Assembly: GCA_964633715.1 (NCBI GenBank)
Contig: CAZWHQ010000012.1
Location: forward strand, 8,062 to 72,061
Direction of reading: 5' to 3'
DNA from: an uncultured Eubacteriales bacterium
Lineage (GTDB): Bacteria; Acidobacteriota; Aminicenantia; Aminicenantales; Aminicenantaceae
Length of the DNA stretch: 64,000 bases
Under the pieces are notes generated by a model. That model did no database searches. It saw nothing but the letters and a program-made list of their open reading frames with translations, and was not told where the DNA came from. Shown in pieces: positions 3,355 through 25,219 of this stretch; positions within the stretch are counted from its first letter, which is position 1, and each line of letters opens with the position of its first letter. The position numbers and the translations under genes are program-made.

Positions 3355-4719
3355 ATGAAAAACCAAACTGACGACAACGGCTTGAAGCGCAAATTGGGGC
3401 TGTTTCCTACGACCAATATCGTCGTAGCCAACATGATTGGCGCGGGCATCTTTACGACTTCAGGGCTGCTCATGATGGATTTACTCAATCCAGTTTTGAT
3501 GATTTCACTTTGGATTGTTGGAGGAATCATAGCCCTCTGCGGGGCATTGGCCTATGGTGAACTCGGCGCAGCCATCCCCCAAGCAGGCGGAGAATACACT
3601 TTTCTCTCAAAATTATACAATCCCATTCTTGGTTTTTTGAGTGGGTGGGTATCATTTTTTGTCGGCTTTTCGGCACCCATCGCAGCCTCGGCTATTGGAT
3701 TCACAGAATATTTCACCCGCGCATTTCCAGGATTCTTGAAGTTTGGTATTTTCGGCGAAACAGTGGAAACCTTAATCCTCAAAAAGTTTTATGCCATTCT
3801 TATCATCGTCATTTTTACCGTTATCCATATGAGAGGTCTGGAACTTGGAACCAAGGTTCAAAATTCTTTAACTGTTTTAAAAGTGGCCCTGATCGTGGGA
3901 CTGGTCTTTTTTGGTTTTTTGTTGGGGAATGGGGATATGAATCATTTCTCCCTCGGAAGTGTTTTTAATTTCGACTTTTCTGGCTGGAAAACGATCGGTC
4001 TCTCACTCATGTGGATTATGTTCGCCTACGCCGGATGGAATGCCTCCGCCTATATCGGCTCTGAAATTAAAAATCCTGCTAAAAATCTTCCACGATCGCT
4101 CCTGCTCGGAACCGGGATTGTCTTATTCCTCTATATCTGTCTCAACTTTTTCTATGTCTATGCCGTTCCCCCTGCCGATATGGGAGGTGTCATTTCGATC
4201 GGAGGGCTCGCAGTCGGCAATCTCTTCGGAAAATCCTTTGAAAGCCTGCTGTCGGTCTTGATTTCATTTGCTCTATTTTCGTCCTTAAGTGCCTTTATTA
4301 TTCTGGGCCCCCGCGTGTACTATTCAATGGCCAGGGACCGCGCTTTTTTCAAATTTGCAGGTGAAGTCCATCCCAAGTTTGGCGTTCCATCCAAATCGAT
4401 TTTACTGCAGGGAGGAATAGCGGTTGTGATGGTTCTCTTCGGTACCTTCGACCAGCTGCTCACCTATATGGGATTTTCTCTAGGAATTTTTCCGATTCTG
4501 GCTGTTCTTGGAGTATTTAAATTGAGACGGACCAACAAAAGTGTCACCAAACTCCCAGGATTTCCTGTCACCTCTCTGGTGTACATTGTTGCAGGTGTCT
4601 GCATTCTTGTTCTGGCCTATTTTGAACGCCCCATCGAATCATCGATCGCAATAGGAACGGTCCTGACTGGAATCCCAGCCTACTTCTTGTTTAAGAAGAC
4701 ATATAAAGACCAAGAGTAG
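3355..4719 (+). CDS. APC superfamily amino-acid permease
   Basis: 454 aa with 12 predicted TM segments. The N-terminus TTNIVVANMIGAGIFTTSGL is typical of the APC/LAT family. The start lies 13 nt after the upstream stop. Confidence 0.85.
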   Translation: MKNQTDDNGLKRKLGLFPTTNIVVANMIGAGIFTTSGLLMMDLLNPVLMISLWIVGGIIALCGALAYGELGAAIPQAGGEYTFLSKLYNPILGFLSGWVSFFVGFSAPIAASAIGFTEYFTRAFPGFLKFGIFGETVETLILKKFYAILIIVIFTVIHMRGLELGTKVQNSLTVLKVALIVGLVFFGFLLGNGDMNHFSLGSVFNFDFSGWKTIGLSLMWIMFAYAGWNASAYIGSEIKNPAKNLPRSLLLGTGIVLFLYICLNFFYVYAVPPADMGGVISIGGLAVGNLFGKSFESLLSVLISFALFSSLSAFIILGPRVYYSMARDRAFFKFAGEVHPKFGVPSKSILLQGGIAVVMVLFGTFDQLLTYMGFSLGIFPILAVLGVFKLRRTNKSVTKLPGFPVTSLVYIVAGVCILVLAYFERPIESSIAIGTVLTGIPAYFLFKKTYKDQE

Positions 4720-4720: not shown

Positions 4721-4748
4721 TGAATTAGAGGTGAATTAGAGGGACATC
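4721..4748 (+). repeat. Tandem short repeat TGAATTAGAGG/TGAATTAGAGGGACATC (REP-like unit, copy A)
   Basis: It sits directly after the permease stop TAG. The same 17-mer recurs at 9560 and, inverted, at 26835. Its core AATT..GGGACA..TC resembles the 27-bp unit of the 26718-26830 palindrome. Confidence 0.7.
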
Positions 4749-6137
4749 AGATTCTCAAGTGAATCGATAGCTTCCTCATATTCTCCGACAATGGTGTAAA
4801 TCGACGCCAAGTTTAAAACATATCGAGGCCCATCAAAGGCATCTTTAGACAGGGGAAACATCTCGACAGAACGGAGCCCTTCCTGCACAGCCTCGTCCTT
4901 CCGGTCAAGATAGGCGTAAAGAAGACCAAAAGAGGAGCGAAACCGGGGATCCTGCGGATTCTTTTGAACCAAGTCCTCGATTATAAGAAGTGCCGTTTGG
5001 GCAAACTTCCGCATGTTTTGGATATCATTCATCAAATAATAGGTGGACGCCAGAGCCATGTCTGTGGGGATATAAAACGTGTTCCCCACAAACGCGTTAT
5101 AGGGCAGAGCCTCTAACCGTTCGATGACATCGTTATTTTTTTTTCAAGAAGTCCTTGAATGTACCAGGAGTAATCGGTCAACTGAAGATCGGGCAACTGG
5201 AGAAGGAGAGCAAGCGATGCATCCAAATCTCCTCTTGCCAGGATCGGAAGCCTTGTCTTCGCAAGAAGAGGAAAGAAATATTTCGGATCGATGGAGATCG
5301 CTCTATCAAACCAGATTTCTGCCTCGTCATATTGGCGCAAACACACATAACTCCGACCTATCTGGTAGGCCAGATCGGCATTCAAAGGGCTGAGTTTAAA
5401 AGAATCCTCAAGAATGGCCGTAGATTCATCCCACCGTCCCTGGCGGCGGAGGATATATCCTAAATAGGTATAGGGCAAATTCGGCCTGGCCTTATGCACC
5501 TCCTCAAAAATTTCAAGGGCACGATTTTAATCTTGAAATCCACGGTAGTAGTAAAATCCCAAAGCCAGTTTTGCATCGGGAAGATCGGGATCGATCTCAA
5601 GCGCCCTGTAATCCGCTTCCCTTGCCTTTTCCAGCCGCTCTTCAGTCCGGTCCACACCGTTAGAGTAGGCCCATTGGTGCGTGATGGAGAGAGTGACGTA
5701 GGCAAAGGAGAAATTGGGATCCAGATCGATAGCTTTGTTCAATAATTCTACTGTTTCATTATAATCGGCAAGATTGGACGTGTTCCAGGCATATCCGGCC
5801 AGCTGTCTTGCTTGGAGATAATAATCACAACGGCAGCGGCCAGAATTCCCCAGCGCTTCTGGAAAGAGATCGTTTGACTCTTTGTTGTTCCCTGGATTTC
5901 CGGAGCCTGGTATTCGACTATGGGCAAAAAATGTTCCAGAGATCTCAGCTCGGCCGCTAAAAGTCCGGGATTGTCAAACCGTTCTTCTTTTCTCTTTTTT
6001 AAGCACCTTAAGATCAGCTGGGCGACCTCATAGGGAATTTGAGAATTGAAACCACGAGGATCCGGAGGCACTTCAGTTTTTTGTTTCGAAGCAATTTCAG
6101 CCGCAGAATCTCCTATAAAGGGCTTTGTCCCTGTCAA
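4736..6137 (-). pseudogene. Decayed paralog of the TPR-sensor Ser/Thr kinases (kinase C-lobe tail + TM + TPR repeats), 5'-truncated and split into four frames
   Basis: ORFs 5748..6137, 5527..5742, 5113..5499 and 4736..5089 are collinear with the kinase tail, TM (WGILAAAVVIIIS) and TPR region of the 11350..14475 protein. The catalytic N-lobe is absent. The last codons MSL* are supplied by the repeat at 4732-4748. Confidence 0.7.
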
Positions 6138-6220
6138 ACTTAAGGCTTTTTGAGAGTTGACTTATTTCAATTTTTCTGCTTTAAATTGACGACATGGTCT
6201 GTCTAAATCAATCTGAGAGA

Positions 6221-9200
6221 ATGACAAATAAAAAGAGGTCTTTTTTCCCCGTCCACATGTTATTTTTGATTGCTGGAATTTTTCTGTTTTCCTTTTTCTG
6301 CTCTTTAAAAAATCAACCTCCATCCGCTTCTGAAAGACGTTGGTTTTTTGGATTTGACAAAGCCATTCGAGGGGAAACGATCTCTTATCATTCCCCCATT
6401 CCCGAGGCCAAAGCAGCATTAATCGTAAGATCTATTGATAAAGATCGCTTCATCGAGTGGACAACGGAACCCCTCCCGGAAATCATTACAGGAGATTCGA
6501 TTACGTTTGTTTGGTTGGCTGGAATTGATGTCAATACAGACAGCCATATCTATGATTTTTTTATAAACGAAAAAAAATGGTTCTCTTTTTCCAATCCAAT
6601 TGATCAAAAAAATGAAGACTGGCAGCTGAAGGGAAATCACGGTGTAAACCTGGAATATCACGTCACATCGATCGATAAATACAACGATTTTATGGGATTC
6701 ATGTTTCTTCATATCCCAAAATCCTTGTTTCCATCAGGACAATCCCTGCATCTCCGCGTCCAAGGAGAAAGCGCCAAAAGCCAGAGCTGGTTTATGATCT
6801 TCCAGTTTCAGGTCAAGCCTCAATTGACACTATTTAGTGAACAGGCCGTGCTCCGCAGGTCCGAAAAACCAAATCAAACAATACGGCTTGAAATCGTCCA
6901 TCTCGACAATCCTGCCCAAGCAACAGTGAGAGCGGGAGACCAGATTTTGGACTCTCCATTGAAACTGGGGCATAATGTTCTCCGTATAGGGATTCCTGCT
7001 GTGCACAGATCAAAATCTTTCACAGTGCAAGTGGATATTCCGGGAAATGACTCTTTAGTCGAACATATTTTCATTCATCCTGTAAGGCATAAGGACATCT
7101 ATCTTCTTCACCATTCCCACGTCGATATCGGATACACACATATTCAAGAAGAAGTGAAAAACATCCAAACCAAAAATCTCGAACTGGCCATCGATCTGGC
7201 CTCTCAAACACAGAGTTTTCCAAAGGAATCTCAATTTAAGTGGAATACAGAAGTGATGTGGCCCATAGATGTATTCAAAGATTATGCTTCGGCGGAGAGC
7301 CAGGACAATCTGATCTCTGCCGTTCAAAATGGATCTATAGGACTGGATGCCCTCTATGCCAACGTGCTGACCGGTTTGTGCCATCCTGAAGAGTTGATAC
7401 ACCTTTTGGATAGTGCACGATTTGCGGCCCAAAAATATGGTGTGAACGTCGACGCCGCCATGATTACTGATATTCCAGGATACACATGGGGACTCGTCCC
7501 GGTACTTGCGCAGAGCGGAATTAAATATCTCTCAATCGGGACGAACTCGAGCCACCGCATCGGCCACATCCTTTCCGAATGGGCGGACCGTCCCTTTTAC
7601 TGGATGTCCCCTTCCGGGCAAGAAAAAGTTCTTTGCTGGGTGCATGGAAAAGGATATTCCTGGTTCCATACAGGTCTTGGGTATTCCAGACTCGACAAAC
7701 GGCTTCAAGAAACTCCCATTTTTGAGTATTTATCCGAACTTGAAACCAATAACTACCCCTACGACATCATTGCAGTCCGCTATAACATCGGCTCGGACAA
7801 TGGCCCTCCGGATCCGGAGCTGTCAAATACGGTTAAAGCCTGGAACGAAAAATACATTTCTCCAAAAATGATCATTGCCACAACCAGCGAAATGTTCCAT
7901 GCTTTTGAGGATAAATACAGCAAAAAGCTTCCCGTTTTCAGGGGGGATTTTACAGGGTATTGGGAAGATGGAGCTGCCTCTTCGGCACGAGAGACAACAC
8001 TTACACGAAAGGCTGCCGAACGCCTCGTCCAAACAGAAATCCTGTGGTCTCTGCTCTCCCCGCACACCTTTCCTTCGGAAGTTGTGGAAGAGACATGGCA
8101 AAATATCCTCCTGTATGATGAGCACACATGGGGCTCATGGAACAGTATTAGCGCTCCGGACTCCGATTTCACTTTAAAACAGTGGGAGACAAAACAATCT
8201 TATGCTTTAAATGCCGATCGGCTCTCCAGACAATTGAAAAAGAATATTAGTGGAATCCCTGAAGACAGCTCGGACAAAATAGAATCCTTGGATGTATTCA
8301 ACACCACATCCTGGGAAAGGTCAGATATTGTTACAATCCCGGCCGATATTCCTGTGGAGGGAGATCGAGTGGTTGACGATGCCGGCCATCCCCTTCCATC
8401 CCAAAGGCTTTCCACCGGCGAATTGGCTGTTCTTTTAGAAGGGGTTCCTGCATTTGGAGCAAAAAGGGTGTTTTTCCAGGACCAAGCGGCCTACTCATGG
8501 GGACAAGCCCGAACGACAGGAACAGAACTCAGTAATGGATGGATTTCCCTTCAGATCGACAAGGCTTCAGGAGCTATCAAGGATTTTAGAACTAAAGATT
8601 TGGATACAAATCTGGCCGACAGACAAAACGGATCCGGTTTAAATGAATACCTCTATGTCGCTGGACGAAATCCAAAAAATCTCCTGAAGAACAAAAACGT
8701 TTCTCTCCAAATCAAAGACTCTGGTCCCCTTGTGGCCTCAATAACAATAGTCTCAGATGCTCCTGGATGCCGGTCCTTAGAACAGGAAATACGAGTTATT
8801 GCCGGTCTCAAACGTGTGGACATCCTTAACGTTATCGACAAACAGGACGTTCGCAAACCTGAGGGTGTTCATTTTGCTTTCCCGTTTTTTATCCCCGAGG
8901 GGCAGGTGCGTGTGGACATAGCCTGGGGGAACTACCGTCCGGAATACGACCAGCTGCCCGGCTCGAATAAAAACTATTTTAGTGTCCAACGCTGGGTGGA
9001 CATTTCCAATAAAAACTTCGGTATCACATGGATCAGCCCAGACACCCCCCTGATTGAAGTGGGAGAGATCGCATCCGATCCCACAGTGTTTGGATGGAAA
9101 ATAAGTGTGGATCCCACACAAACTATCTATTCCTATGTCATGAACAATTACTGGGAAACCAACTACAAGGCCTCACAGGAAGGCCCTGTAACATTCCGGT

Positions 9201-9562
9201 ATTCATTGACACCTCATTCCAACTTTGATCCCGTGGAAACGGAACGCTTTGCCATCGAACGTTGCCAACCTCTGATTGTTCTTCCTTCAGACAAAATAGT
9301 CCCTTCTTCATCTTTTCTCCAGCTGGATTCGTCAAATGTTTTAGTGACCTCGCTGAAACCCAGCAAAGACGGACAGGCCATCCTTTTAAGGCTTTATAAT
9401 CCCGGCGTAAGAACGGAAAGGTTACGGTTCATCTGGGGGAAGCAAAAACCCGAATCTCTTTATACAAGCAGCCCGTTTGAAGAAAAGGGAAAAAAAATCA
9501 CAGATACACTTCGTGTTCCAGCTTTTGGAATATTAACTCTCCGCGCCGAAAACTTTAAATGA
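6221..9562 (+). CDS. Secreted glycoside hydrolase, GH38 (alpha-mannosidase)-like catalytic domain with an extra N-terminal domain
   Basis: HHSHVDIGYTH resembles the GH38 HxHxDxGW metal-binding motif. It is a long 1110-aa ORF with an N-terminal hydrophobic signal. The start is chosen at ATG 6221 (ATG 6194 is the alternative). The stop TGA is part of the repeat at 9560. Confidence 0.55.
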   Translation: MTNKKRSFFPVHMLFLIAGIFLFSFFCSLKNQPPSASERRWFFGFDKAIRGETISYHSPIPEAKAALIVRSIDKDRFIEWTTEPLPEIITGDSITFVWLAGIDVNTDSHIYDFFINEKKWFSFSNPIDQKNEDWQLKGNHGVNLEYHVTSIDKYNDFMGFMFLHIPKSLFPSGQSLHLRVQGESAKSQSWFMIFQFQVKPQLTLFSEQAVLRRSEKPNQTIRLEIVHLDNPAQATVRAGDQILDSPLKLGHNVLRIGIPAVHRSKSFTVQVDIPGNDSLVEHIFIHPVRHKDIYLLHHSHVDIGYTHIQEEVKNIQTKNLELAIDLASQTQSFPKESQFKWNTEVMWPIDVFKDYASAESQDNLISAVQNGSIGLDALYANVLTGLCHPEELIHLLDSARFAAQKYGVNVDAAMITDIPGYTWGLVPVLAQSGIKYLSIGTNSSHRIGHILSEWADRPFYWMSPSGQEKVLCWVHGKGYSWFHTGLGYSRLDKRLQETPIFEYLSELETNNYPYDIIAVRYNIGSDNGPPDPELSNTVKAWNEKYISPKMIIATTSEMFHAFEDKYSKKLPVFRGDFTGYWEDGAASSARETTLTRKAAERLVQTEILWSLLSPHTFPSEVVEETWQNILLYDEHTWGSWNSISAPDSDFTLKQWETKQSYALNADRLSRQLKKNISGIPEDSSDKIESLDVFNTTSWERSDIVTIPADIPVEGDRVVDDAGHPLPSQRLSTGELAVLLEGVPAFGAKRVFFQDQAAYSWGQARTTGTELSNGWISLQIDKASGAIKDFRTKDLDTNLADRQNGSGLNEYLYVAGRNPKNLLKNKNVSLQIKDSGPLVASITIVSDAPGCRSLEQEIRVIAGLKRVDILNVIDKQDVRKPEGVHFAFPFFIPEGQVRVDIAWGNYRPEYDQLPGSNKNYFSVQRWVDISNKNFGITWISPDTPLIEVGEIASDPTVFGWKISVDPTQTIYSYVMNNYWETNYKASQEGPVTFRYSLTPHSNFDPVETERFAIERCQPLIVLPSDKIVPSSSFLQLDSSNVLVTSLKPSKDGQAILLRLYNPGVRTERLRFIWGKQKPESLYTSSPFEEKGKKITDTLRVPAFGILTLRAENFK

Positions 9563-9590
9563 ATTAGAGGGACATCTGAATTAGAGGGAC
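9560..9590 (+). repeat. Tandem REP-like repeat TGAATTAGAGGGACATC + TGAATTAGAGGGAC (copy B)
   Basis: Exact 17-mer match to copy A. It provides the stop codon of the GH38-like gene and, on the other strand, the MSL* end of the ABC fragment. Confidence 0.7.
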
Positions 9591-10037
9591 CAAAAGCAGA
9601 GCCGGGTGAATCATTCCGATCATTAACACGGGGATAACAAGGGCAAGGCCGGAGTCCATAATCAACACCACACCCGGACTGAACATCAGGTTGAGTGAAC
9701 GCATGTCATTGGTGGAACGGGCCATGATATCGCCGATGCGCTGCCGGCTGTGGAAGGTTTGGCTTTTTCCCAGAAGATTCAAGTAAAGCTCCTCCCGTGA
9801 GTCTCTCTCGACACGCTGAGCCAAAAATTCTCCCGAAAAGTTCCGCAAGACTCCGGTCAGACCTTCACTGAGAGCGGATCCAAGGATGACAAATACGGGA
9901 ACCATTAGGGCGGCAGTCTGGAATCCGGACTTTAAAATGACATCAAAGGCCTTTCCGACATAAAGCTGGATGTTGCTGTAGGCAAAATTGTTGACGACAG
10001 TACTGAAGAGCAGAATCAAAGCCGTGGAGGATTCCAC
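9564..10037 (-). pseudogene. ABC exporter transmembrane-domain fragment (TM1-TM3 only), 3'-truncated at the repeat
   Basis: RIGDIMARSTNDMRSLN matches the type I ABC exporter TMD motif (TGDLxSRxTNDV). It is only 157 aa with no NBD. It starts at GTG and ends in the repeat-encoded MSL*. Confidence 0.6.
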
Positions 10038-10534
10038 TTTTTGAGGGAGAACAGGGAAGTGATAGTAGGGGCAACTTTGGACGACAGATAATTACAGCAG
10101 ATGATCTCGATAGACGCTTCGGTTCAGGTACAAGTTCCAAATTCTTCAAGAATGAATTTATAATTCGAATTTATCTCGATAATACTGTTCATGGTTTATA
10201 CCACTATGTAACGGCTGTTTGGGCGCAGATATATGGCTACTAGGAAGATTCATGTTGTAATGAGTCGAATTTCAAGGACTTTTCGAATTATCTAGAGACA
10301 CTATCTGTTACCAAATCCTCAAAGCAGCCACCCTTCTTCCTGAGTAGGGGAGAAGCAGCTTTTCCTTTCCTATAGCTTTAGAAGCCCGATTAAGGGGGTT
10401 TAAAACCGGACAAAAGATTTTATTCAAACCGCAGTGTATCGACAGGATTTATCCTGACTGATAATTTGCCCATCTTGGTCATTAAAACTGAACCTCTCCA
10501 TCCTGTCTCTTTTAGTTTTACTCTGTTAAGGCCG

Positions 10535-10933
10535 TTATCTCAGCCAATTTTCCAGACGCAAATAATCGATGCGCTTAAACTCTTTTGTGTTATTAGTAAC
10601 AAAAATCAAGTTATAGGCTGTAGCTTGAGAGGCAAGTAATAAATCCATTGGTCCTATAGGAGTACCTTTCAATTCTAATTCTTCTCTAATTCTTCCATAG
10701 GAAGCTGCCTTTTGGTCGAAATCCAACAGGTTGAATGGTATAAGAAATTCAAGGATAGCGATTCTGTTTTGATGCGGATTTTGACTTCGTTCTGCTCCAT
10801 AATTGAGTTCAGCTATGGTAATTGACGAAATCGATATTTCATTTGGATGCTTTGAGCGAATATTTTCAAGGACTGCAGCAGGACGTTTATTGATTATGTA
10901 AATACAAATGTTTGTATCTAATAAGTATTTCAT
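10535..10933 (-). CDS. vapC: PIN-domain toxin VapC
   Basis: MKYLLDTNICIYIIN...D...E...D acidic PIN residues. It overlaps the upstream antitoxin by 4 nt (ATGA). Confidence 0.85.
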   Translation of the reverse strand: MKYLLDTNICIYIINKRPAAVLENIRSKHPNEISISSITIAELNYGAERSQNPHQNRIAILEFLIPFNLLDFDQKAASYGRIREELELKGTPIGPMDLLLASQATAYNLIFVTNNTKEFKRIDYLRLENWLR

Positions 10934-11166
10934 TGAATAGGTTCACGCTTTTCAAATGTCCCTTGATCCCTATTAAAATCAAAAAAATCGTTAGAGAATT
11001 TATTAAGGCTATCGAAAAGTGGCTGCCAAGGATCTTTATCCTTAGGAATGAGTATGACAACTCCATTGATTTTCTTAATATAGACTTCTTTTCCTGAAAG
11101 AGAATATTCTTTTGGAAGCCTTACGGCTTGGCTGCGACCGTTTAAGAATAATTTCGCTGTATCCAT
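10930..11166 (-). CDS. vapB: AbrB/SpoVT-type antitoxin VapB
   Basis: The internal ATG at 11166 gives MDTAKLFLNGRSQAVRLPKEYSL... (swapped-hairpin fold). A strong RBS GGGAGGT lies upstream. The longer listed ORF is an overextension. Confidence 0.8.
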   Translation of the reverse strand: MDTAKLFLNGRSQAVRLPKEYSLSGKEVYIKKINGVVILIPKDKDPWQPLFDSLNKFSNDFFDFNRDQGTFEKREPIQ

Positions 11167-11313
11167 TATATTACCTCCCTTGGTATATACCATAATATAT
11201 ACCACTTCTAAAAGATTCTCAAGCCCCGACGTACTAAATAGACGTAATTTTAATAGATAATTTCTCAATGAAAATTAGGCATATTAAGTTTTAATTATCT
11301 TTGGAAAATATGG

Positions 11314-11346
11314 ATATATCGCGAAATAATTAATTTCGCGATATAT
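11314..11346 (-). terminator. Perfect 14-bp stem / 5-nt loop hairpin immediately after the kinase-1 stop; likely intrinsic terminator
   Basis: ATATATCGCGAAAT-AATTA-ATTTCGCGATATAT, followed on the transcript strand by a U-rich stretch. Confidence 0.5.
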
Positions 11347-11349
11347 TGT

Positions 11350-14300
11350 TCATGGAACCTTCAATCCAGTCAGTCTCTTCTTCGCATCTTCAACATCGAG
11401 ACTACCAGGATCAGCATCTTTCCAGAGATCAAGGAATTTTTCGTAGTGTTCAATAGCTTTATCTATAAATCCTTTTTTCTCATACAATTTTGCTAATCTG
11501 AAGTGGTATTTTGGGTGAATAAGATATCGCTCTTCTGTATTTGGATCAAATGTAACTAACCGCTCATATTCCACAATGGCTTTTTCTATTTCTCCATTTT
11601 TCTGATACGCCCTAGCCAGGACATCCTTTATGAAGGGCACATTATGGGAGAGGATAAATTGTATTTGAGGAGGTCTTCCCAATTGCGATGCTTTCTCTAA
11701 AATGGCAACCGCTTGGTCAATCGAGCCTTCGGCAAGCAGTATCTCTCCTTGGAGTATGTCATAAGAGAATTTTGCCCTATTTTCATTTGAAGGATCTATT
11801 TCAGGTAGGAGCGACTTCATTTTGGCCAGTCTTGACTTTGCGGAATCGATTCGCCCTTGTTTCAAGTCTATTAATCCGAGATCGAAAGAGTAAAATGCTG
11901 TATTTCCTGGTTCAAATTGAGGCTCATATTCTAAGAAATAATCGAACCATTTTTTAAAGCTTTTCTGGCTAAGTTCAAGCTCGTCCAGTTCATAATAGAC
12001 AGATCCTTTCAGATTTTCAATCAGGGCAACAAACATCTCATTTCTGACCTCTTTGGCTAGGTCCAAAGCCATCTGAAATTCTAGAAGGGACTGTTTTAAG
12101 TTGCCAAGCCAGAAATGATAGAATCCTTTATATAAATATCCAAAGCTCTTTATCCAAGGAATTTGAAAAAAATTAATCTGCAGATCGAGCCATTTCATTG
12201 CTTCAGGATAATTCTCCTTTAATGCATAGATGTATCCGATGCTTAAGCGGGTTATGGGAAAATCCGGTTTAATTTCTAACGCCTCTTTATATTTCACAAT
12301 CGCCTCATCAAGCTTTCCCATCCTCAGATATACTTCGCCCAGGGAATCTATGGGATTGGCATTCCCAGGAGAGACAGTTACATACTTCTTAAAATATTCA
12401 ACTGCTGCCTCAAAATCGCCAATATTTGAATACGTGTAGGCAAGACTATTCATGGCCTCTCCATAGTTTGGATCAAGCTCCAGTGCCGACTGGAACACTT
12501 CTATGGCTTGGTTGAACATATTTAAGTCTTGATAAAATTTACCTAATTCGTAGTGAGCTCTCTTTTCTCCTGGGTATTTTGTCGCTATTTCTTTGAGAAA
12601 CTGAAGCTGCTTTTGTGGATTTTTCTCTACGTCTAATGCATACGATGCTTCGATATAAAGCCGTTCTTTATCGGAGGCATTCTCCGAATAAATTTTTGCC
12701 TTCTCTAAGGCTTCCTCATTCGATCTGGGGTCCGATATACTTCTATATACCTGTGCAAGGTAATAGTATGCCATAGCAAATGTAGAATCGTATTCTATGG
12801 CCTTCTCGAGGAATTGAACGGCCTCATTAAAATAGTATTCTTCAAATGCCTCTCTTCCTTTTAAAAAGTAGTTGTACGCTTCCATTGAAGACGAAGTCAA
12901 TCCGGAAATCTGTGTTTTTACTTCACCCATCTTCTGGCTAGAGCTTCCAATATTTTGGATGATTTTATTGCTGAGTTCATCGATTTGCGTTTTTAGAATG
13001 CTGTCAATGCCCTCGCCTCTTGAACTGGAACTCATCAAAAGGTTCTTTGTCTCCACATCTAATACCTTCACATCTGTGACAAACACATTACCGGCTTTGG
13101 TGTAGCTGCCCAGAACAATCGCAGCTATGCCATCTCTTTGACACAGTTCAAATCCGGAATCACTGTTTATAATCTCGACATCTTCTTTTCCTATTTGCTT
13201 AAGGAGATCTCGCATGCGCTCCCATGTTGTTACATGAAAATTCCCTGTCTGTTCAAGACTGGTTATCAGGAGATTGGGGATCGCTTTTTGTAAATAATCG
13301 TAGGTCTGGTCTCCGGTCTGATTTTCAAAGCTGATAACTGCGATGGAATTTTCAATTATTGGAGCAACTACAATTTTCTTTTTTGGAAGAAGCTTCAGCG
13401 TTAAAACGATGACAATAATGGAAGCAAGGACAATCAGGAAAGGAATTAGAGTTTTTTTCAGGCCAAAGGTCACAGTAATCTCTTTTGATGTTAGAGGCTT
13501 CTTATGCGGGATGGTTCTTCCGGTTGTTGGCAAGCCTTCCTCTATGCTTTTTATATCTTGAAGAACTTCATCTGCACTTTGAAATCTATTCTCTTTTGCT
13601 TTCTCCAAGCACTTTAGAATTACACGGCTGAAATCCTTTGGAATCTGAGGATTGAGTTCAATGGGATCTTTGGGCAGTTCTCCTTTGTGTTTCATGGCAA
13701 TGCTGAGTGGAGTATCTCCGTGGAAAGGAAGCTGCCCCGTCACCATCTCATACAGGATAACTCCCAATGAGTAGATATCAGAGCGAAAATCCACATCTTT
13801 GCCTTCGGCTTGTTCGGGACTCATATATTCAGGAGTTCCGATCATAATCCCGGATCCGGTGATACCTTTGCCTTTTACAGATCGAGCAATCCCGAAGTCC
13901 ATAATCCGGGCACTTCCATTATCATCGATCATGATGTTGTTCGGCTTGAGGTCTCGATGAACAATCCCAATTTTGTGAGCCTCAGATAAGCCCTTACATA
14001 TTTGTTTTCCTATCGAAAGAGCCCTGGACGTGCTCAGCGGTGCAGCCCTTCTGATGAAATTCTTCAAATCTCCACCGGAAACATATTCCATAGTAATATA
14101 ATATGTGTCTTTTTCCCTGTTCAGATCATACATCCGGCAGACATTTTTGTGGGAAATATCACGGGCTGTTTTAAGTTCATTTCTGAAACGCTCAATAGTA
14201 TTCTTATCCACTGCAATCTCAGGTAAAATAAGCTTAAGGGCAACTTTGGTGTTGATTTCTTTATCGAGCACTTTGTAGACTTTGCCCATTCCTCCTTTAC

Positions 14301-14475
14301 CCAATTCCTCAATAATCTGGTACCGTCCGGCAAAAGTAGAGCCTGTCGTGAGTTCTTGTTTGGGTGTTTCTAAAGTGACAGCATCTTTAAGATCAGGGAA
14401 GGGAGTCGCACACTTATTGCAGAATTTTGACTCGTTTGGATTTTCTGTTTGACACTTCGGGCATTCTATAGTCAT
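11350..14475 (-). CDS. Zinc-ribbon / Ser-Thr protein kinase / single TM / extracytoplasmic domain with C-terminal TPR repeats (kinase 1)
   Basis: N-terminal CPKCQTENP...CNKCATPF. Kinase motifs are GKGGMGKVYKV, HRDLKPNNIMID, DFGIAR and GTPEYMSPEQ. One TM (LIPFLIVLASIIVIVL). About 600 aa of TPR-rich sensor region. Confidence 0.9.
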   Translation of the reverse strand: MTIECPKCQTENPNESKFCNKCATPFPDLKDAVTLETPKQELTTGSTFAGRYQIIEELGKGGMGKVYKVLDKEINTKVALKLILPEIAVDKNTIERFRNELKTARDISHKNVCRMYDLNREKDTYYITMEYVSGGDLKNFIRRAAPLSTSRALSIGKQICKGLSEAHKIGIVHRDLKPNNIMIDDNGSARIMDFGIARSVKGKGITGSGIMIGTPEYMSPEQAEGKDVDFRSDIYSLGVILYEMVTGQLPFHGDTPLSIAMKHKGELPKDPIELNPQIPKDFSRVILKCLEKAKENRFQSADEVLQDIKSIEEGLPTTGRTIPHKKPLTSKEITVTFGLKKTLIPFLIVLASIIVIVLTLKLLPKKKIVVAPIIENSIAVISFENQTGDQTYDYLQKAIPNLLITSLEQTGNFHVTTWERMRDLLKQIGKEDVEIINSDSGFELCQRDGIAAIVLGSYTKAGNVFVTDVKVLDVETKNLLMSSSSRGEGIDSILKTQIDELSNKIIQNIGSSSQKMGEVKTQISGLTSSSMEAYNYFLKGREAFEEYYFNEAVQFLEKAIEYDSTFAMAYYYLAQVYRSISDPRSNEEALEKAKIYSENASDKERLYIEASYALDVEKNPQKQLQFLKEIATKYPGEKRAHYELGKFYQDLNMFNQAIEVFQSALELDPNYGEAMNSLAYTYSNIGDFEAAVEYFKKYVTVSPGNANPIDSLGEVYLRMGKLDEAIVKYKEALEIKPDFPITRLSIGYIYALKENYPEAMKWLDLQINFFQIPWIKSFGYLYKGFYHFWLGNLKQSLLEFQMALDLAKEVRNEMFVALIENLKGSVYYELDELELSQKSFKKWFDYFLEYEPQFEPGNTAFYSFDLGLIDLKQGRIDSAKSRLAKMKSLLPEIDPSNENRAKFSYDILQGEILLAEGSIDQAVAILEKASQLGRPPQIQFILSHNVPFIKDVLARAYQKNGEIEKAIVEYERLVTFDPNTEERYLIHPKYHFRLAKLYEKKGFIDKAIEHYEKFLDLWKDADPGSLDVEDAKKRLTGLKVP

Positions 14476-14499
14476 TTTCCCTCACAAGAATGTTTTTAT

Positions 14500-14529
14500 A
14501 AGGATATAAATTATGGAGGAAGGTGTCAA
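14500..14529 (-). promoter_or_regulatory. Conserved promoter element of the kinase paralogs (TTGACACC-N-AATTTATATCCTT)
   Basis: On the coding strand it reads TTGACACCTTCCTCCATAATTTATATCCTT, about 25 nt upstream of the ATG. Near-identical elements occur at 21378-21408 and 25244-25272. Confidence 0.55.
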
Positions 14530-14701
14530 TAATGTCTGAGTAGGGGAGAAGGGGTAAAATAAGGCAATTCTACCGAGATGGATTTGAAAAGGAATAGAAA
14601 TTGAGAAATATCTGTAGGGCAAAACGTCTTAAAAACTAGGAAAGATTAAAAAAGCAACTATATTTCAGTTGCATTTCTTTTTCAAAAATAATATATTCAT
14701 T

Positions 14702-14962
14702 ATGACAAAGCAAGATAAGTTACTAAACAGATTTTTATCGAAACCAAAAAATTTTACTTATAATGAAATGATAAAACTTCTAAAAGGATTCGGTTATCAG
14801 GAAGTAAGATCCGGAAAGACTTCTGGATCCCGTGTCGCCTTTATAAGCACAACTAAACACCATATAATTCGCCTACACAAACCTCATCCCAAAAATATAC
14901 TAAAGAAATATCAACTCGATTTAATAGAAGAAGAGTTGAAAAACCAGGACATTCTAAAATGA
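14702..14962 (+). CDS. hicA: HicA-family mRNA interferase toxin
   Basis: EMIKLLKGFGYQEVRSGKTSGSRVAF...HKPHP matches the HicA fold signature. The start is taken at ATG 14702 (the listed ORF begins at TTG 14669). It overlaps hicB by 4 nt. Confidence 0.7.
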   Translation: MTKQDKLLNRFLSKPKNFTYNEMIKLLKGFGYQEVRSGKTSGSRVAFISTTKHHIIRLHKPHPKNILKKYQLDLIEEELKNQDILK

Positions 14963-15312
14963 AAGATATTCTTAAACATGACGGTTTCATCGGATCTCTT
15001 CATTTCAGTGCAGCCGATGACTGTTTTTTTGGCAAGATTGAAGGAATTGATGACCTGATCACTTTTGAAGGGCAGGACGTCGATGGGCTTAAAAAGGCTT
15101 TTCTGGAAGCGATAGAAGACTACAAAGCACTTTGTATTCAAGCAAATAAACTTATGCATAAATCGTACAAAGGAAGTTTTAATGTTCGGATTGATCCTGA
15201 ATTGCATAAAAAAGCAGTTCAGAAATCTTTGATGATGGGGATATCATTGAACCAACTTGTTCAAAAAGCTATTGAGGAAGAGGTTAAGAATCAGTCCGTT
15301 GACACACTTTGA
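14959..15312 (+). CDS. hicB: HicB-family antitoxin with C-terminal RHH-like DNA-binding tail
   Basis: The size, the ATGA overlap with hicA, and the HicB-like N-domain (HDGFIGSLHFSAADDCFFGKIEGIDDLITFEG) support it. Confidence 0.7.
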   Translation: MKDILKHDGFIGSLHFSAADDCFFGKIEGIDDLITFEGQDVDGLKKAFLEAIEDYKALCIQANKLMHKSYKGSFNVRIDPELHKKAVQKSLMMGISLNQLVQKAIEEEVKNQSVDTL

Positions 15313-15364
15313 AGAGAAAACCTATGGGAAAGGAATATGATCGAAAACTAAACAAAAAGAGAAA

Positions 15365-15673
15365 ATGATGAGAGATATCTATGATGAAGTCAAAGATTTT
15401 TTCCGTGATAATCCTGATGTCGTTATATCTGAAGGGAAAAGTGCACAAGGACTCAAACATAATAACAAGATGTTTGTCATGTTTTATAAGGGAGATTTAA
15501 CGATTAAAGTCAAACCTGAAACGGCTGTAAAGCTCATTGATCAAGGAAAAGGATTTCCTTTTGATCCTGGAACAGGCGTACCAATGAAAGACAGAATCCT
15601 TATCCCTGCTTCCCTGAAAGGGAATTGGATTTCTCTATGTGAATTATCTCTGGAAGAAGTAAAAAGTAAATAA
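15365..15673 (+). CDS. TfoX N-terminal domain-like small protein
   Basis: KMFVMFYKGDLTIKVKPETAVKLIDQGKGFPFDPGTGVPMKDRILIP matches the TfoX_N pattern (MFGG..DG.mFAlv...LylK...pF). Confidence 0.45.
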   Translation: MMRDIYDEVKDFFRDNPDVVISEGKSAQGLKHNNKMFVMFYKGDLTIKVKPETAVKLIDQGKGFPFDPGTGVPMKDRILIPASLKGNWISLCELSLEEVKSK

Positions 15674-15720
15674 GAAATTCATCCACTCCATGATGAAACA
15701 CAACAGCTTTGAAATAACAC

Positions 15721-16935
15721 TTACACTATTAATCTCGGCATCAGCGGATTCAGCCATATCATCACTTTATAACTGGTAATTTCGGTCCATTCGGCTATGT
15801 CAACGGCAGTAATCTCCTCTTTTCCCTGAGTCCCCAGCAGGACAACTTCGTCTCCCATGGATACTCTGGAATCCGGTTTCAGCAGGACTTCCATATGGTT
15901 GGCAGACATATAAGCGACCACCGGACAGCGTTCACCATTGATCAGGACAAAGGTATTTCCCTGGGCGTTATAAGGGTACCCGTTGGAGTAACCAACCGGG
16001 ATAACGGCAATTTTCTCTTTAGTTTTGGCCACATAGGATTTGTTATACGAAACCTGATCTCCCGGGCGCAGGTTTCTGACCACCGCCACGCGGCTTTTAA
16101 GCTGTAAAACAGGCTTCAGTATTATTTCCTTAAATTTTTCCCTAACTTCCCGGGAAGGGTAATATCCGAATAAAAGCAGCCCGGGCCGGACCATATCCAG
16201 GTAAGACGACCTTTGAGAAAAGATTCCGGTAGAGCTCACGGCATGCTTTATTTCCAAAGAGATTCCCTCACTTTCCGCCTGCTGACAGAGGATTTGAAAG
16301 CGTTTGATCTGTACTTTATCCAACTCATCATCTTCACTCATTGCAGTGGAAATCCCTTTTATCCGAAGGCCTTTCCACCCAGCGACTTTCTTGATATAAG
16401 GCATAGCCTCGTAATAGGGGATTCCCATCCTGGCCATTCCCGTATCCACATGAATATGGACATCTGACCTTTTCCCTATCTTGAGTGCCGCGGCGTTCAG
16501 TTCCTGAGCCTTTCCGGTAAATATAGATTGAGATATGTTTTTCTTAATGAGAATCTCTGCAGCGTCCTCATGAAGCGGTCCGAAATTGTGAACAGGACAG
16601 GAAACACCTGCCTCTCTCAATTGGAGTGCTTCGGGGAGACTGACGACCATAAGAGCATCGACTTTTTGTTGATCCAAATAGCGGCCGACTTCCACCAGAC
16701 CATGGCCGTAGCCATTGCATTTAATAACACCCATGATGGGAACCTTGACGAATTTTCTTAACTGTTCCAGATTCCATCCCATATTCTCCAGCTTCAATTC
16801 GATCCAGACGTCATCATAAGAACTGTTCTGGTCTTTGCTTCCTAAAAGTGGTTTATCAAAGTCCATTCCGCCGGTCAGGTATGCAGCAGAGCTCACGCCG
16901 GCGAATGACAGGAAATCCCTTCTGTTTATTTTCAT
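15721..16935 (-). CDS. alr: Alanine racemase family (PLP) with twin-arginine (Tat) signal peptide; putative periplasmic broad-spectrum amino-acid racemase
   Basis: Start at ATG 16935 with a perfect GGAGG RBS. MKINRRDFLSFAGVSSAAYL is a Tat motif. VIKCNGYGHG contains the PLP-lysine motif. There is a C-terminal beta-domain. Confidence 0.8.
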   Translation of the reverse strand: MKINRRDFLSFAGVSSAAYLTGGMDFDKPLLGSKDQNSSYDDVWIELKLENMGWNLEQLRKFVKVPIMGVIKCNGYGHGLVEVGRYLDQQKVDALMVVSLPEALQLREAGVSCPVHNFGPLHEDAAEILIKKNISQSIFTGKAQELNAAALKIGKRSDVHIHVDTGMARMGIPYYEAMPYIKKVAGWKGLRIKGISTAMSEDDELDKVQIKRFQILCQQAESEGISLEIKHAVSSTGIFSQRSSYLDMVRPGLLLFGYYPSREVREKFKEIILKPVLQLKSRVAVVRNLRPGDQVSYNKSYVAKTKEKIAVIPVGYSNGYPYNAQGNTFVLINGERCPVVAYMSANHMEVLLKPDSRVSMGDEVVLLGTQGKEEITAVDIAEWTEITSYKVMIWLNPLMPRLIV

Positions 16936-16990
16936 TTTCCCTCCTCTACAAAAATAGACAAGCAGACCTATTAGACACAATCATACAATC

Positions 16991-17245
16991 TTGTACAACC
17001 GATTATCTCTGCTTATAAAGGACTTCATGAAATTGGTTTTTTTTGCCAACATCATTGCCATCCCTATTGCATATTTTTTTATGAACAGGCTAATCCATTT
17101 TATTTACACTTATCCCATAACGATTGGGGCCGAAGTTTTTATTGTTTGTGCTGTCCTTTCATTGCTGGTGGCCTTCATAACTGTTTCGTCTCAGACCATA
17201 AAATCGGCTTTATTGAATCCAGCAGACAGCTTGAGATACGAGTGA
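16991..17245 (+). pseudogene. Orphan C-terminal fragment of an FtsX/MacB-type ABC permease
   Basis: It ends ...LLNPADSLRYE, the canonical FtsX permease C-terminus. Only about 84 aa remain. It is a paralog of the fragment at 52058..52309. Confidence 0.6.
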
Positions 17246-17601
17246 AGCACTCATCAGAGGATCTCTGCTAAGAAACTAAAGATAAGGACTATAAATCTTA
17301 TTATTATCGGGACAGCAGGCTGGAACTGATGGGGATCTAACCCACGACCCCTTGGCTGCCAGTCATGCTTTCAGTATAGACCTTTCCCTTGTGTAACAAT
17401 ATCCTATGTCAATAACAAATTTACTAACGGTGCCCTCTGATAAGGTGTTTTGTTCTTCAGCGGTAGTTTGTAAGTTTTCTTTCCCTTACGAAGGACGCCA
17501 ATCCCAGCCTCGCTGAAGTTGAAGATACAAAGAAAAGGCGGTGGGATTGAAGGAATAATTCACTTTCCTGAAAAAATCTGAAAAATATCTTTTCCGGATC
17601 G

Positions 17602-18048
17602 TCAAATCTTCTCGAGTTTTTCGATATCGGCAAGGTCCTGTTTTCTTCCTGAAATGCGCTTGCAGTGTATCAGGTCCTGTTTTGATATAAAGAAGACAGA
17701 GATATCCCCATACTGCCCGGAAACGCGGTTTGGCCAGAAATTATTGAAATCCGTTCCCTTAATAGAGGTCAAAATGTCGATCCTCACTGGATCCATGCCC
17801 AATTGGATAATTTGGCCGGGTTCCATAAAATCTTTATCAGTCAGTTTGAGATCTTCAAAGCCAAAATCTTTGATGGCATCCAAAATATTCTTGGCATTTT
17901 TCTGGGTTTGCTCGATGAGGATATCGATATCTTTGGTATAGCGCGGCTCAGCGTAAAAACTGTAGGCAAATCCTCCGATTATTAAGTAGTGGACGTCATG
18001 CCTGTTTAATAACGCGATAAATTCTTTGAAATCCTTTTCGACTCTCAT
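17602..18048 (-). CDS. Nucleotidyltransferase-fold protein (DUF6036-like)
   Basis: LIIGGFAYSFYAEPRYTKDIDILI matches the hG[GS]x9-13DhD nucleotidyltransferase motif. Confidence 0.6.
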   Translation of the reverse strand: MRVEKDFKEFIALLNRHDVHYLIIGGFAYSFYAEPRYTKDIDILIEQTQKNAKNILDAIKDFGFEDLKLTDKDFMEPGQIIQLGMDPVRIDILTSIKGTDFNNFWPNRVSGQYGDISVFFISKQDLIHCKRISGRKQDLADIEKLEKI

Positions 18049-18181
18049 TTTTCAATTCATAATACATATCTCTCAGCTGTTGAAGCGCATCCAGCTTTTC
18101 TTCGGAAGTTTTGGACTTCCAGAAAGCTATGTCTTTTTTTTCGGCCTCTGCAAAAGATAATTTCCTCAGATTCTTTTCCAT
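17996..18181 (-). CDS. Small helical protein upstream of and overlapping the nucleotidyltransferase gene; possible antitoxin-like partner
   Basis: 61 aa, charged and helical (…EEKLDALQQLRDMYYELKN…). Same strand, 53-nt overlap with the NTase ORF. Confidence 0.35.
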   Translation of the reverse strand: MEKNLRKLSFAEAEKKDIAFWKSKTSEEKLDALQQLRDMYYELKNESRKGFQRIYRVIKQA

Positions 18182-18413
18182 ATTGTTATTCTACCAGAGC
18201 TCTTCATAATTCTCTATAATTCTTTATTCTCATTTCTTTATTCACATTGAAACTCCAATCCTAAATCTATAATGCCATTTCTGTGGGCGGCTAGATTTAT
18301 AAGAATTATTTATAAGAATTTCCTTTTTGTCTTTGCTCCGAATTCCTCATAAATTTCCTCAAAATCTACCCGCTGACAACTGAAATTAGAATTATCATAT
18401 CAAAACGGTAAGG

Positions 18414-18614
18414 TCAATGGCTCATAAAGCCAAACAACTTCCCCCTATGAGCATTGGCATAGAGTCCTGAGTTACGAATCATGACCTGGCCTTTATCGGG
18501 AATATGGGAGGTGACTCTGGCGATAAACTCCAGATAATCGATATGCTCTGAATCTGTGCTGTGCTTTCCGTATTGATAGATTACCTGCCCTTGGGCCTCA
18601 TCAAAGGAAAGCCG
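18414..18614 (-). mobile_element. Remnant 3' end of an IS91-family (HUH/Y2 rolling-circle) transposase gene
   Basis: EHIDYLEFIARVTSHIPDKGQVMIRNSGLYANAHRGK aligns with the IS91 TnpA C-terminus (…LEfIgR…P.…H.vRyyGlLAnahR). The upstream half of the listed ORF is an alternate frame of the TolB tail. Confidence 0.5.
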
Positions 18615-21353: not shown

Positions 21354-21377
21354 CGTTCCTCTTTGCTATAGCGACAT

Positions 21378-21408
21378 AAGGATATAAATTTTAGTGAGCG
21401 GGTGTCAA
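21378..21408 (-). promoter_or_regulatory. Conserved kinase-paralog promoter element (copy upstream of kinase 3)
   Basis: AAGGATATAAATT-N11-GGTGTCAA on the plus strand, equivalent to TTGACACC…AATTTATATCCTT on the coding strand. Confidence 0.5.
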
Positions 21409-21521
21409 ATGAGAATACCGGCTCTAAATATTGTTAGGAAACAACCCCTTTCCAAAACATATGGGAAAAAATCAATTATCTCATTCAGAAATGCAGAAAA
21501 GAATTTCCCCGTTAAGATATA

Positions 21522-22052
21522 TCATTGAATGCCAGGAACTAGAGCACTTTTGCTTAGTTTCTCCAGAGTTTTTTGGATTTCCGCATCTGATTTTCCTTGA
21601 ATTTGAATCTTTTTATTAATCCCTAAAACCGTTCCAAGCACTGCACCAGCGACTCCGCCAATAGCTCCAAATGTGATATATTTTTGATTAGGCTCAAAAG
21701 ACCTAGATTGACTTTTTGTGGCTGACCCATAGAGTATGCCAGCTAACACTCCATAAATACCCACTTGCAATACCCTAGATTTTGTCACAATCGTGATCAT
21801 TTCCACTTCCTTTATCAGTATCTGCGATGAAATATCTGCATTTATTTCTGCAGACATTAACAATAACGAATCCTTTTTAACAGTGATGAGTTCACCTGTT
21901 ACTTGTTGACCATCATTTTTCTGAATCCTCAGTTTGGCTCCTTTTCTTACACTTCTGGACAAGTCTTGTGCCATCAAATTCCATGAAAACGCCACTAAAG
22001 AAAGAACAAGCAGCAGTGAAACGATTCCTTTTCTTTTTTCTCCTATAAGCAT
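21522..22052 (-). CDS. Secreted small protein with C-terminal glycine-zipper motif
   Basis: Start at ATG 22052 with a perfect AAGGAG RBS. Signal peptide MLIGEKRKGIVSLLLVLSLVAFSWNLMAQ. C-terminus AIGGVAGAVLGTVLG. It lies between kinases 2 and 3 on the same strand. Confidence 0.6.
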   Translation of the reverse strand: MLIGEKRKGIVSLLLVLSLVAFSWNLMAQDLSRSVRKGAKLRIQKNDGQQVTGELITVKKDSLLLMSAEINADISSQILIKEVEMITIVTKSRVLQVGIYGVLAGILYGSATKSQSRSFEPNQKYITFGAIGGVAGAVLGTVLGINKKIQIQGKSDAEIQKTLEKLSKSALVPGIQ

Positions 22053-22114
22053 TGAACTGTCTCCTTTGTGGATATACATGAAAAGTTAGAGCACCAAGCT
22101 CGGTAAACCTAAAT

Positions 22115-25100: not shown

Positions 25101-25219
25101 GTTTCATATGTTTTGGTGAGGACTCCCTCTCTTGCATCAGGAAGAGGAGTGTCACACTCACCACAGAATTTCTGAGAATCAGGATTATCTGTGTGACACT
25201 TAGGGCATGTTGTGCTCAT
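22115..25219 (-). CDS. Zinc-ribbon / Ser-Thr protein kinase / TM / TPR-repeat sensor (kinase 2), paralog of kinase 1
   Basis: CPKCHTDNP...CGEC. Kinase motifs GKGGMGKVYRV, HRDLKPNNIMID, DFGIAR and GTPEYMSPEQ. A TM segment and a long TPR region. The C-terminus DLWKDADPG..DAKQRLAGLKE parallels kinase 1. Confidence 0.9.
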   Translation of the reverse strand: MSTTCPKCHTDNPDSQKFCGECDTPLPDAREGVLTKTYETSTEALTRGSTFVDRYEIIEELGKGGMGKVYRVEDTKVKEEVALKLIKPEIAADKKTIERFRNELKFARKIRHKNVCAMFDLGEEKNLHYITMEYISGQDLKGLIRQTGQLTVGKAVSIAKQICAGLKEAHSLGIIHRDLKPNNIMIDRGGNVRIMDFGIARAVKGKSITGSGAIIGTPEYMSPEQVEGKDVDQRSDIYSLGIILYKMLTDRVPFEGDSAITVGVKQRTETPKAPKNFNERIPDDFNQLILKCLEKDRENRYQSAEELRSELENIEKGIPTTDRIVSKKKSVTSKEITVKFKVKKLLIPTIGIIALAVITFMILQFIPKKEFIPSLTEKPSLAILYFDNLSSDSSLDAWEMGLTELLIIKLAQSKYINVLDGNTVYSILKKLNLDEGKKYTKEDLVKVASEGRASHTLSGSILKPGQNIIITLSLQSQQTGEVINSLRIECIGEEEIISKVDEVSNQIKSDLDLSPRLIAEDINKELREITTAIPEAFKFYSKGREFFRNREWENSIAIMEKAVDLDPGIAMAYRSMAAASYNLRNLDKEKVYIQKAFELRERISERERYIIEGDFYNVSEKTFDKSIEAYIKLLELYPDDRMANSNLAWVYSQIEEWDKAIKPYEANMKQKVSSTVTYNGMSIMYEAKGLYDKAREILEDYTKSFSDSAFLRRRISTIYASQGEFDLALNEANKAFSLDPTYHGIYYYFGDIYLLKGDFLEAEKEFQKLADTSNEGYVRGSMFRLSLLYRAEGKFRESKEQIEKRRELSIQASNASAESYTHLYLCEHYLSIGDFSSALKENEKYLDFALETESLSRQRVALWQKGLAYIGMNSIDKAQETADELKEFIENGIYKKIIRFYYHLQGGIEQKKNNYSLAVEYFKKTLSVLPSQKSGHSTFDALFYDSLAFANFKAGDLENAQENYETIISLTWGRLYWGNIYAKAFYMLGKIHEQQGDKTIAIENYEKFLDLWKDADPGLPEVDDAKQRLAGLKE

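Follow-up and report, generated by a model that had tools for sequence, protein, structure and literature searches.

Repetitive extragenic palindromic (REP) sequences, bacterial interspersed mosaic elements (BIMEs) and REPINs (REP doublets forming hairpins) of proteobacteria are mobilized by Y1 transposases termed RAYTs (REP-associated tyrosine transposases), and REPINs consist of inverted doublets (PMC3116915). Palindromic extragenic repeats are also known targets of insertion sequences (ISs) (PMC1525189), with IS1397 and ISKpn1 found in BIME loops and IS110-family elements in REPs (PMC1525189, PMC12288879). Here we describe a 17-mer, TGAATTAGAGGGACATC, in a stretch of 64,000 nucleotides from an uncultured Aminicenantes bacterium (assembly GCA_964633715.1, contig CAZWHQ010000012.1, positions 8,062 to 72,061; hereafter the window). 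We propose, with a probability of about 0.5, that this 17-mer is the outer arm tip of a palindromic, non-autonomous extragenic element resembling REPINs or miniature inverted-repeat transposable elements (MITEs), which was rearranged at its interior.

Among the described systems, MITEs such as the Correia elements and mobile insertion cassettes such as MIC231, which has IS231 ends, are further points of comparison (for a review, see PMC3184786). The proposed element resembles them in its terminal inverted repeats, its variable interior, which ranges from a bare hairpin to passenger genes, its lack of a transposase of its own and its intergenic location. It differs in that neither a target-site duplication nor a parent IS with the same ends was found, and in that the interior edges are here formed by truncated genes. 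Palindromes can also stimulate breakage, through cleavage of hairpins by SbcCD, and microhomology-mediated joining is known from alternative end joining (alt-EJ) and microhomology-mediated break-induced replication (MMBIR). The locus shares with these processes junction identities of 7-12 nt, short duplicated filler and an adjacent long perfect palindrome; however, these processes, putative in this organism, do not by themselves account for the tandem tips.

Inverted copies of the 17-mer border a lineage-specific insertion

The exact 17-mer occurs on the plus strand at 4732-4748 (site 1) and 9560-9576 (site 2), each time with a partial tandem copy: TGAATTAGAGG at 4721-4731, which begins after the stop codon of an amino-acid permease gene, and TGAATTAGAGGGAC(C) at 9577-9590. 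An earlier reading of this DNA made without database searches (hereafter the sequence-only reading) had described the tandem motif at 4721-4748 and 9560-9590, and the sequence is as it stated. The inverted third copy that it placed behind the dctM stop was likewise recovered: TAAATAAGAGGGACATC at 26835-26851 on the minus strand (site 3) matches the 17-mer at 15/17 positions and lies 7 nt from a palindrome at 26717-26827. Sites 2 and 3 together form terminal inverted repeats of the kind seen in MITEs. With up to three mismatches allowed, the window contains four matches compared to 0.23 expected, a number reached by none of 100 shuffles (0/100); a further 11-mer, at 48011, is inside a coding gene and looks like a chance match. 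The sequence-only reading had further placed sites 1 and 2 exactly at plus-strand stops, which is accurate for site 2, whose first 3 nt are the TGA stop of a GH38 (alpha-mannosidase-like) gene. At site 1, in contrast, the permease stop (TAG, 4717-4719) ends 1 nt ahead of the motif. At site 3, the unit starts with the 3 nt of the dctM stop (TTA on the plus strand, 26849-26851).

The closest homologues of the GH38 protein are found in Aminicenantes (Acidobacteriota). An 80%-identical relative (L028) carries a peptidase gene, the permease gene, an intact TPR Ser/Thr-kinase gene (889 aa, minus strand), GH38 and dctM-dctQ-dctP in this order. The stops of GH38 and dctM are separated by 10 bases in L028, 6 in L080, 1 in L078/L079 and 0 in L077, compared to 17,286 bp in the window. 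Just inside the GH38 stop, the window has ATTAGAGGGACATC, and just inside the dctM stop it has the inverted copy of this sequence, GATGTCCCTCTTAT, the boundary sequences being inverted 14-17-mers; GH38, dctM and the permease gene all keep their native C-termini down to the last codons. Because the stops adjoin each other in the relatives and are flanked by inverted copies in the window, a lineage-specific insertion of 17.3 kb (9563-26848) has sites 2 and 3 as its inverted borders. The GC content is 0.37-0.43 inside this island and 0.44-0.47 in its flanks. Neither the motif (up to three mismatches) nor the core of the palindrome was found in ~90 kb of related Aminicenantes contigs. The link that the sequence-only reading drew between the motif and insertion or deletion events is supported by the synteny breaks, by the 17.3-kb island and by a 103-nt loss from the kinase gene at site 1.

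A second record of the same DNA, JGI contig L027, shows sites 1 and 2 without any difference and ends at ~26808, inside the palindrome. This break could be taken as a sign that the junctions, or the join at the palindrome, are assembly artifacts, the more so as one of the related contigs is itself mis-assembled by its appearance: L077 (NCBI GCA_042585245.1, JBHORZ010000016.1; 18.4 kb) is mirror-symmetric, with AP_endonuc-GHMP-DctPQM-hexapeptide genes at both ends in opposite orientations, and looks like a palindromic mis-assembly. We nevertheless consider an artifact extremely unlikely, given the agreement of the two records at sites 1 and 2, a right junction that leads to dctM, the ancestral neighbor of GH38, with its native stop, and a 17-bp repeat too short to mislead an assembler.

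Other differences in gene order were noted among the relatives. In L080, the GH38 stop is followed only by the last ~23 nt of dctM (L080:13243-13300), and the next annotated genes include an esterase gene that lies ~9 kb further on in L028. The convergent GH38/dctM junction has therefore been rearranged in another lineage as well, without the motif. Some relatives (L029/L030, L077, L078) have no kinase gene between permease and GH38.

Two truncated genes are fused to the motif

Minus-strand genes that have lost their 3' ends run into the motif at sites 1 and 2. At site 1, this is a TPR Ser/Thr-kinase pseudogene in three open reading frame (ORF) fragments (4736-6137). Compared to the 889-aa orthologue in L028, it is short of 37 codons at the 3' end and ~215 codons at the 5' end, and homology ends after ...ENLM. 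In tblastn and blastn comparisons with L028, it extends to ...EYEEAIDSLENLM, and in place of 103 nt at the 3' end of the L028 kinase gene, the window has the 16 nt TAGAGGTGAATTAGAG. The last 7 nt of the 17-mer at site 1, GGACATC, overlap native kinase sequence, which reads GGCCATC in L028; this junction overlap, GG(A/C)CATC, is identical at 6/7 positions, and TAGATGAAT at site 1 aligns with TAGATTAAT of L028.

At site 2, the truncated gene encodes an ABC exporter (9564-10037, minus strand), of which the N-terminal half of the transmembrane domain is left (Pfam ABC_membrane positions 2-149 of 274). Its best homologues are from Spirochaetia and Anaerolineae. In an alignment with eight homologues, the fragment is native up to ...HPALLLVPLI and then reads QMSL*, where the homologues continue with FTVLL...; LLLVPLI is conserved among them and P151 is invariant. 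Read on the opposite strand, AATTAGAGGGAC at 9579-9590 gives the codons for V-P-L-I (GTC CCT CTA ATT), so that the second unit of site 2 is ABC coding sequence and not an inserted repeat. These 12 of its 14 bases match the arm tip over 12 nt, and foreign to both neighboring genes are only 9560-9576 plus TG.

Both truncated frames end in MSL* within the repeat, as the sequence-only reading had described. Of the three frames in which the motif's reverse complement can be read, a single one (ATG TCC CTC TAA) holds a stop, so that this shared tail is without functional meaning. The native sequence reaches up to the identities of 7-12 nt at the two sites; the kinase and ABC genes are therefore fused in register to a copy of the arm. 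The sequence-only reading held that the repeat supplies the last codons of the pseudogenes, and the frames do end there, but the MSL* tails arise passively, as by-products of in-register fusion at short identities. The break points themselves are uniform: all disrupted arms, namely those of sites 1 and 2 and both arms of a foreign locus described below (L066), break 0-2 nt after GACATC.

With such short identities, an explanation without any mobile element deserves attention, namely that the motif is templated filler from microhomology-mediated repair, copied from GTCCCTCTAATT in the ABC gene and reused at neighboring junctions, and that its likeness to foreign hairpins is coincidental. It would suit the second unit of site 2, whose 12/14 native nt are duplicated by the adjacent unit, and the non-native stretches between native flanks at sites 1 and 2, which as delimited here measure ~16 nt; the large share of chance coding matches among public occurrences of the 17-mer (44/59, see below) points in the same direction. 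However, filler leaves unexplained why the same 14-17 nt stand inverted at the two ends of one insertion. GACATC, moreover, is absent from the ABC gene and common to all three sites, and the arm tips of a recurrent hairpin family, present twice in one genome, consist of an identical 17-mer. We therefore regard repair filler as quite improbable.

The 17-mer forms hairpin arms in other organisms

Scans for the exact 17-mer returned 26 loci in species-representative genomes, 46 in JGI metagenomes and 1 in viral contigs, with a single match per stretch throughout; the source contig is not among them. They amount to 59 distinct contexts, of which 44 are in long open frames (ELEGH or DVPLI) and represent chance coding matches. 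None of the 185,579 species-representative genomes has more than two exact copies, the source genome not being part of the scanned collections. A small non-coding group shares the extension ...GACATCAT(A)YTTAATT. In two of these loci (L015, L074), the exact 17-mer makes up both arms of hairpins of 53 and 66 bp, which lie between convergent genes and abut their stops. The arms are perfect or near-perfect, and the hairpins fold with a free energy (dG) of -36.4 (z -11.7) in L015 and -28.6 (z -4.9) in L074. A third locus (L019) is an element of 766 bp with one membrane-protein gene between its arms, of which the left is degenerate and the right perfect; together, L015 and L019 give two copies of the 17-mer in one Eubacteriales metagenome-assembled genome. 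A profile built from the foreign arms only matches sites 1-3 and nothing else in the window or the relatives. It aligns site 3 through AACCTTAATT to arm position 27, and the extension of the site 3 arm, AACCTTAATTAATT, resembles the arms of the foreign hairpin elements. This extension is the one similarity that is not forced by the design of the search.

In a fourth locus (L066), inverted copies (15/15 and 14/15) flank an ISDpr1-like IS4-family transposase gene in an element of 1.36 kb. The ISDpr1-like IS4 group has its own ends, CACTAGTGTCCCA, and a 9-bp target duplication in one copy (L084). In L066, the IS4 terminal repeats (CACTAGTGTCC...) start just inside GGGACATCA; the left end of the IS directly abuts GGGACATCAG, and its right end GGGACATCAT. 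The arms are therefore outside the IS, which lies in the middle of a hairpin element. The idea that the motif is the terminal repeat of the L066 element was dropped on the same grounds, as related copies place the true ends of the family inside the motif arms. L066 is a direct parallel for insertion between arms, and it recalls the use of REPs as IS targets: the IS occupies the center of inverted arms, just as foreign DNA lies between arms in the window. Unlike in the known cases, the IS in L066 is an ISDpr1-like member of the IS4 family that lacks a clear target duplication at this locus, and the window has a mosaic of 17 kb as its insert instead of one IS. A homologue of the L066 transposase was not found in the window.

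The sequence-only reading had recognized REP/BIME organization in the window, and a high-copy family of this type in the source genome, mobilized by a RAYT encoded outside the window, would be the corresponding explanation. The motif does behave like REPs, BIMEs and REPINs in being a short extragenic repeat between convergent genes at sites of insertion and rearrangement. Its copies stand at 3' ends, one of them next to a mosaic palindrome, and the inverted doublets in L015 and L074 form hairpins as REPINs do. In the window, however, the inverted units are 17.3 kb apart, with no short spacer. The 17-mer has neither self-complementarity nor an internal palindrome, and 71-nt stretches centered on sites 1 and 2 fold at -7.3 and -10.5 kcal/mol, no better than shuffles (z +0.34 and +0.67). 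The motif has 3 sites in 64 kb and none in the ~90 kb of relatives, and a multi-copy genome was not found among the species representatives. All three sites are synteny breakpoints and not the ordinary 3' UTRs at which single units had been placed. The same 17-mer is, in addition, present in unrelated phyla, whereas REPs are usually species-specific. As stated before, the window has no RAYT-like transposase: tblastn with an IS200 TnpA sequence gave nothing better than E 0.02, and no Y1 transposase was detected in the window. Taken together, we consider a REP/BIME family very unlikely.

Further searches with the motif added little to this picture. No Rfam family reached its gathering threshold in the window and five foreign loci (0 matches), BLAST of the L015 hairpin against plasmids returned nothing, and a literature search by sequence string found unrelated primers only. 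In viral contigs, TTAGAGGGACATCAT occurs in coding or ribosome-binding-site contexts only, without hairpins. In phage contigs L096, L099, L103, L110, L114, L125 and L138-L140, it is followed by G or AATG ahead of ORFs, and the motif plausibly doubles as a Shine-Dalgarno plus spacer sequence. Integron attC, Xer/dif sites and translational-coupling ribosome-binding sites were dropped as identities of the motif, as defining sequence features or downstream ORFs are missing. Genes of ~150 aa upstream of the foreign copies do not constitute one family; only those of L019 and L066 are homologous.

Several observations concern the IS4 elements. ISDpr1-like copies at L084/L085/L086 (1360-2683) and L083 (705-2057) have the ends CA(C/G)T(A/G)(G/C)TGTCCCA, and the 9-bp duplication in L084 is GATTAGCCT. 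In L084-L088, the element lies between ParE/RHH and PemK/RHH toxin-antitoxin pairs. A 78%-identical copy adjoins an IS66 transposase gene in an Aminicenantes metagenome-assembled genome (L082). Short repeats that are like the IS4 end, GTATAGTGTCCCCAGAAC, stand in tandem or inverted near IS copies (L089:1776-1810, L084:538-616).

A proposed rearranged palindromic element at the island and deletion borders

What is observed comprises the motif positions, the breaks in synteny, the truncated genes, the identities at the junctions and the related foreign hairpins. From these we infer that the arms at sites 2 and 3 were once one element or a pair of terminal inverted repeats, and likewise in what order the events took place and which enzyme or repair route was involved. 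The consensus arm would read (TG)AATTAGAGGGACATCA, with a variable interior behind it. At the convergent GH38 and dctM genes, two inverted arms (9560-9576 and 26835-26851) lying on the stops would enclose 17.3 kb of accessory, decayed DNA, and a solo arm (4721-4748) at the convergent permease/kinase junction would mark the loss of 103 nt. Just inside GACATC, the interior of the element may have undergone illegitimate recombination. The ABC fragment and the kinase gene would have been fused in register to the arms via identities of 12 nt and 6/7 nt, respectively, which would truncate both genes and let their frames run into the stop of the arm, giving MSL*.

Some findings weigh against this proposal. 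Sites 1 and 2 each carry a partial tandem copy, which simple microhomology joining does not explain, as it would leave a single copy; nor does the proposal account for native ABC sequence being identical to the arm tip over 12 nt when both copies were kept. The connection with the foreign hairpins consists of 17 nt chosen by the search plus ~10 nt of extension at site 3, for which we estimate a chance probability of roughly 0.001-0.01. On inspection of the flanks, no recognizable target-site duplication was seen at the window, L015, L074, L019 or L066. No transposase with these ends was found, and the sole IS between arms, that of L066, has its own ends. Only three copies are present in 64 kb. 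The junction from the palindrome to dctM is present in one assembly only, as the JGI contig stops before it.

Alternatively, the arms could be the terminal inverted repeats of a large, now defective cargo transposon that carried the whole 17.3-kb island with it. Multiple transposase-binding repeats, as in the ends of Tn7, IS21 and Mu, would then be represented by the tandem 17-mers at the left border and by the AATT..GGGGACAGTC units at the right one, and the small hairpins elsewhere would be deletion derivatives. Inverted boundary repeats exactly at the ends of the insertion fit this view, as do the TG start and CA end of the best-preserved arms (L074, right arm of L015), the direct tip repeats at sites 1 and 2, and the presence of the same tips on elements of 53 bp, 66 bp, 766 bp (one gene, L019) and 1.36 kb (IS4, L066). 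However, the island holds no intact transposase gene, only fragments of an ISL3-family gene (26421-26717, minus strand; C-terminal third, DDE_Tnp_ISL3 positions 151-237 of 240, E 1.8e-20) and of a Y2_Tnp (IS91-type) gene (18414-18794, minus strand; Pfam PF04986, profile positions 112-179 of 183). A target-site duplication is not visible, the unit adjoining the left tip is native ABC coding sequence, and both inner edges are truncated, the ABC gene at its 3' side and the ISL3 transposase gene at its 5' side, where it is cut exactly at the left edge of the palindrome; an organized transposon would not be expected to end in this way. The truncated genes at both inner edges favor entry of the island into a pre-existing hairpin, and the TG...CA termini and repeated tip-like units favor its being cargo between arms. 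On balance, we regard the cargo transposon as possible but unlikely.

The rearranged palindromic element could also belong to something larger. The break point just after GACATC, seen at sites 1 and 2 and in both arms of L066, would fit a cross-phylum family of small "TG...CA" hairpin elements that lie precisely between convergent stops, share a tip of ~17 nt and have a fixed break or insertion point after GACATC. Such elements might serve as landing pads or cassette boundaries for foreign DNA, their contents varying between nothing but a loop, a single gene, an IS and an island of 17 kb, and a sequence-specific enzyme would act on them. We mention this as a speculation that is probably incorrect in this extended form. 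Should the hairpin family turn out to be genuine and widely distributed, its members would make hot spots of insertion between convergent genes recognizable across several phyla; for now, the feature is of an ordinary kind, namely remnant inverted-repeat arms at island and deletion borders. In either case, the three sites map where and how an uncultured Aminicenantes genome gained a 17-kb accessory island and lost gene ends, and the junction microhomologies record the repair route.

Contents of the island and structure of the palindrome

The palindrome next to site 3 (26717-26827, ~111-113 bp) has 53-nt arms that are 98% complementary and folds with a dG of -93.9 kcal/mol (z -15). Each strand contributes two terminator-like units, four in all, in which a T-run follows a GGGGACAGTCCC hairpin. 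Viewed as a repeat, it contains four copies of a 26-nt unit, TAATTGGGGACAGTCCCTACTTTTTA, each of which scores as a small hairpin plus T-run terminator, and it is inside this array that the JGI assembly of the same DNA breaks. The core AATT..GGGACA..TC, which the sequence-only reading found in common between the palindrome unit and the motif, is there but suggestive only. A 19-base string from the unit had 0 matches in viral contigs, and BLAST of the palindrome against plasmids and phages returned nothing.

The island is accessory, partly decayed DNA. From its left inner edge, the ABC exporter fragment (9564-10037), it continues with a PIN/MazE toxin-antitoxin pair (10535-11268), a full TPR Ser/Thr-kinase gene (11350-14475), a HicA gene, called on the matching JGI contig L027, with HicB (about 14700-15312), and genes for an alanine racemase (15721-16980) and a DUF6036 nucleotidyltransferase (17602-18048). 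Behind the Y2_Tnp fragment lie genes for a PD40-repeat protein (18904-20421), a kinase-domain fragment (20523-21353), a second full TPR Ser/Thr kinase (22115-25219) and a SprT-like protein (25682-26344), ahead of the ISL3 fragment. A 22-nt similarity between 9591-9612 and 48644-48665 was considered as a sign of a paralogue and discarded as chance, the second stretch being in a beta-lactamase-like gene.

With the AbiEii-like DUF6036 nucleotidyltransferase counted alongside PIN/MazE and HicA/HicB, the island carries three toxin-antitoxin-type modules. The kinase pseudogene at site 1 (4736-6137) and the three kinase genes or fragments of the island (11350-14475, 20523-21353 and 22115-25219) are four zinc-ribbon/TPR Ser/Thr-kinase paralogues within 25 kb, and their 5' ends share repeats of 88 nt and 217 nt (families D1 and D2).

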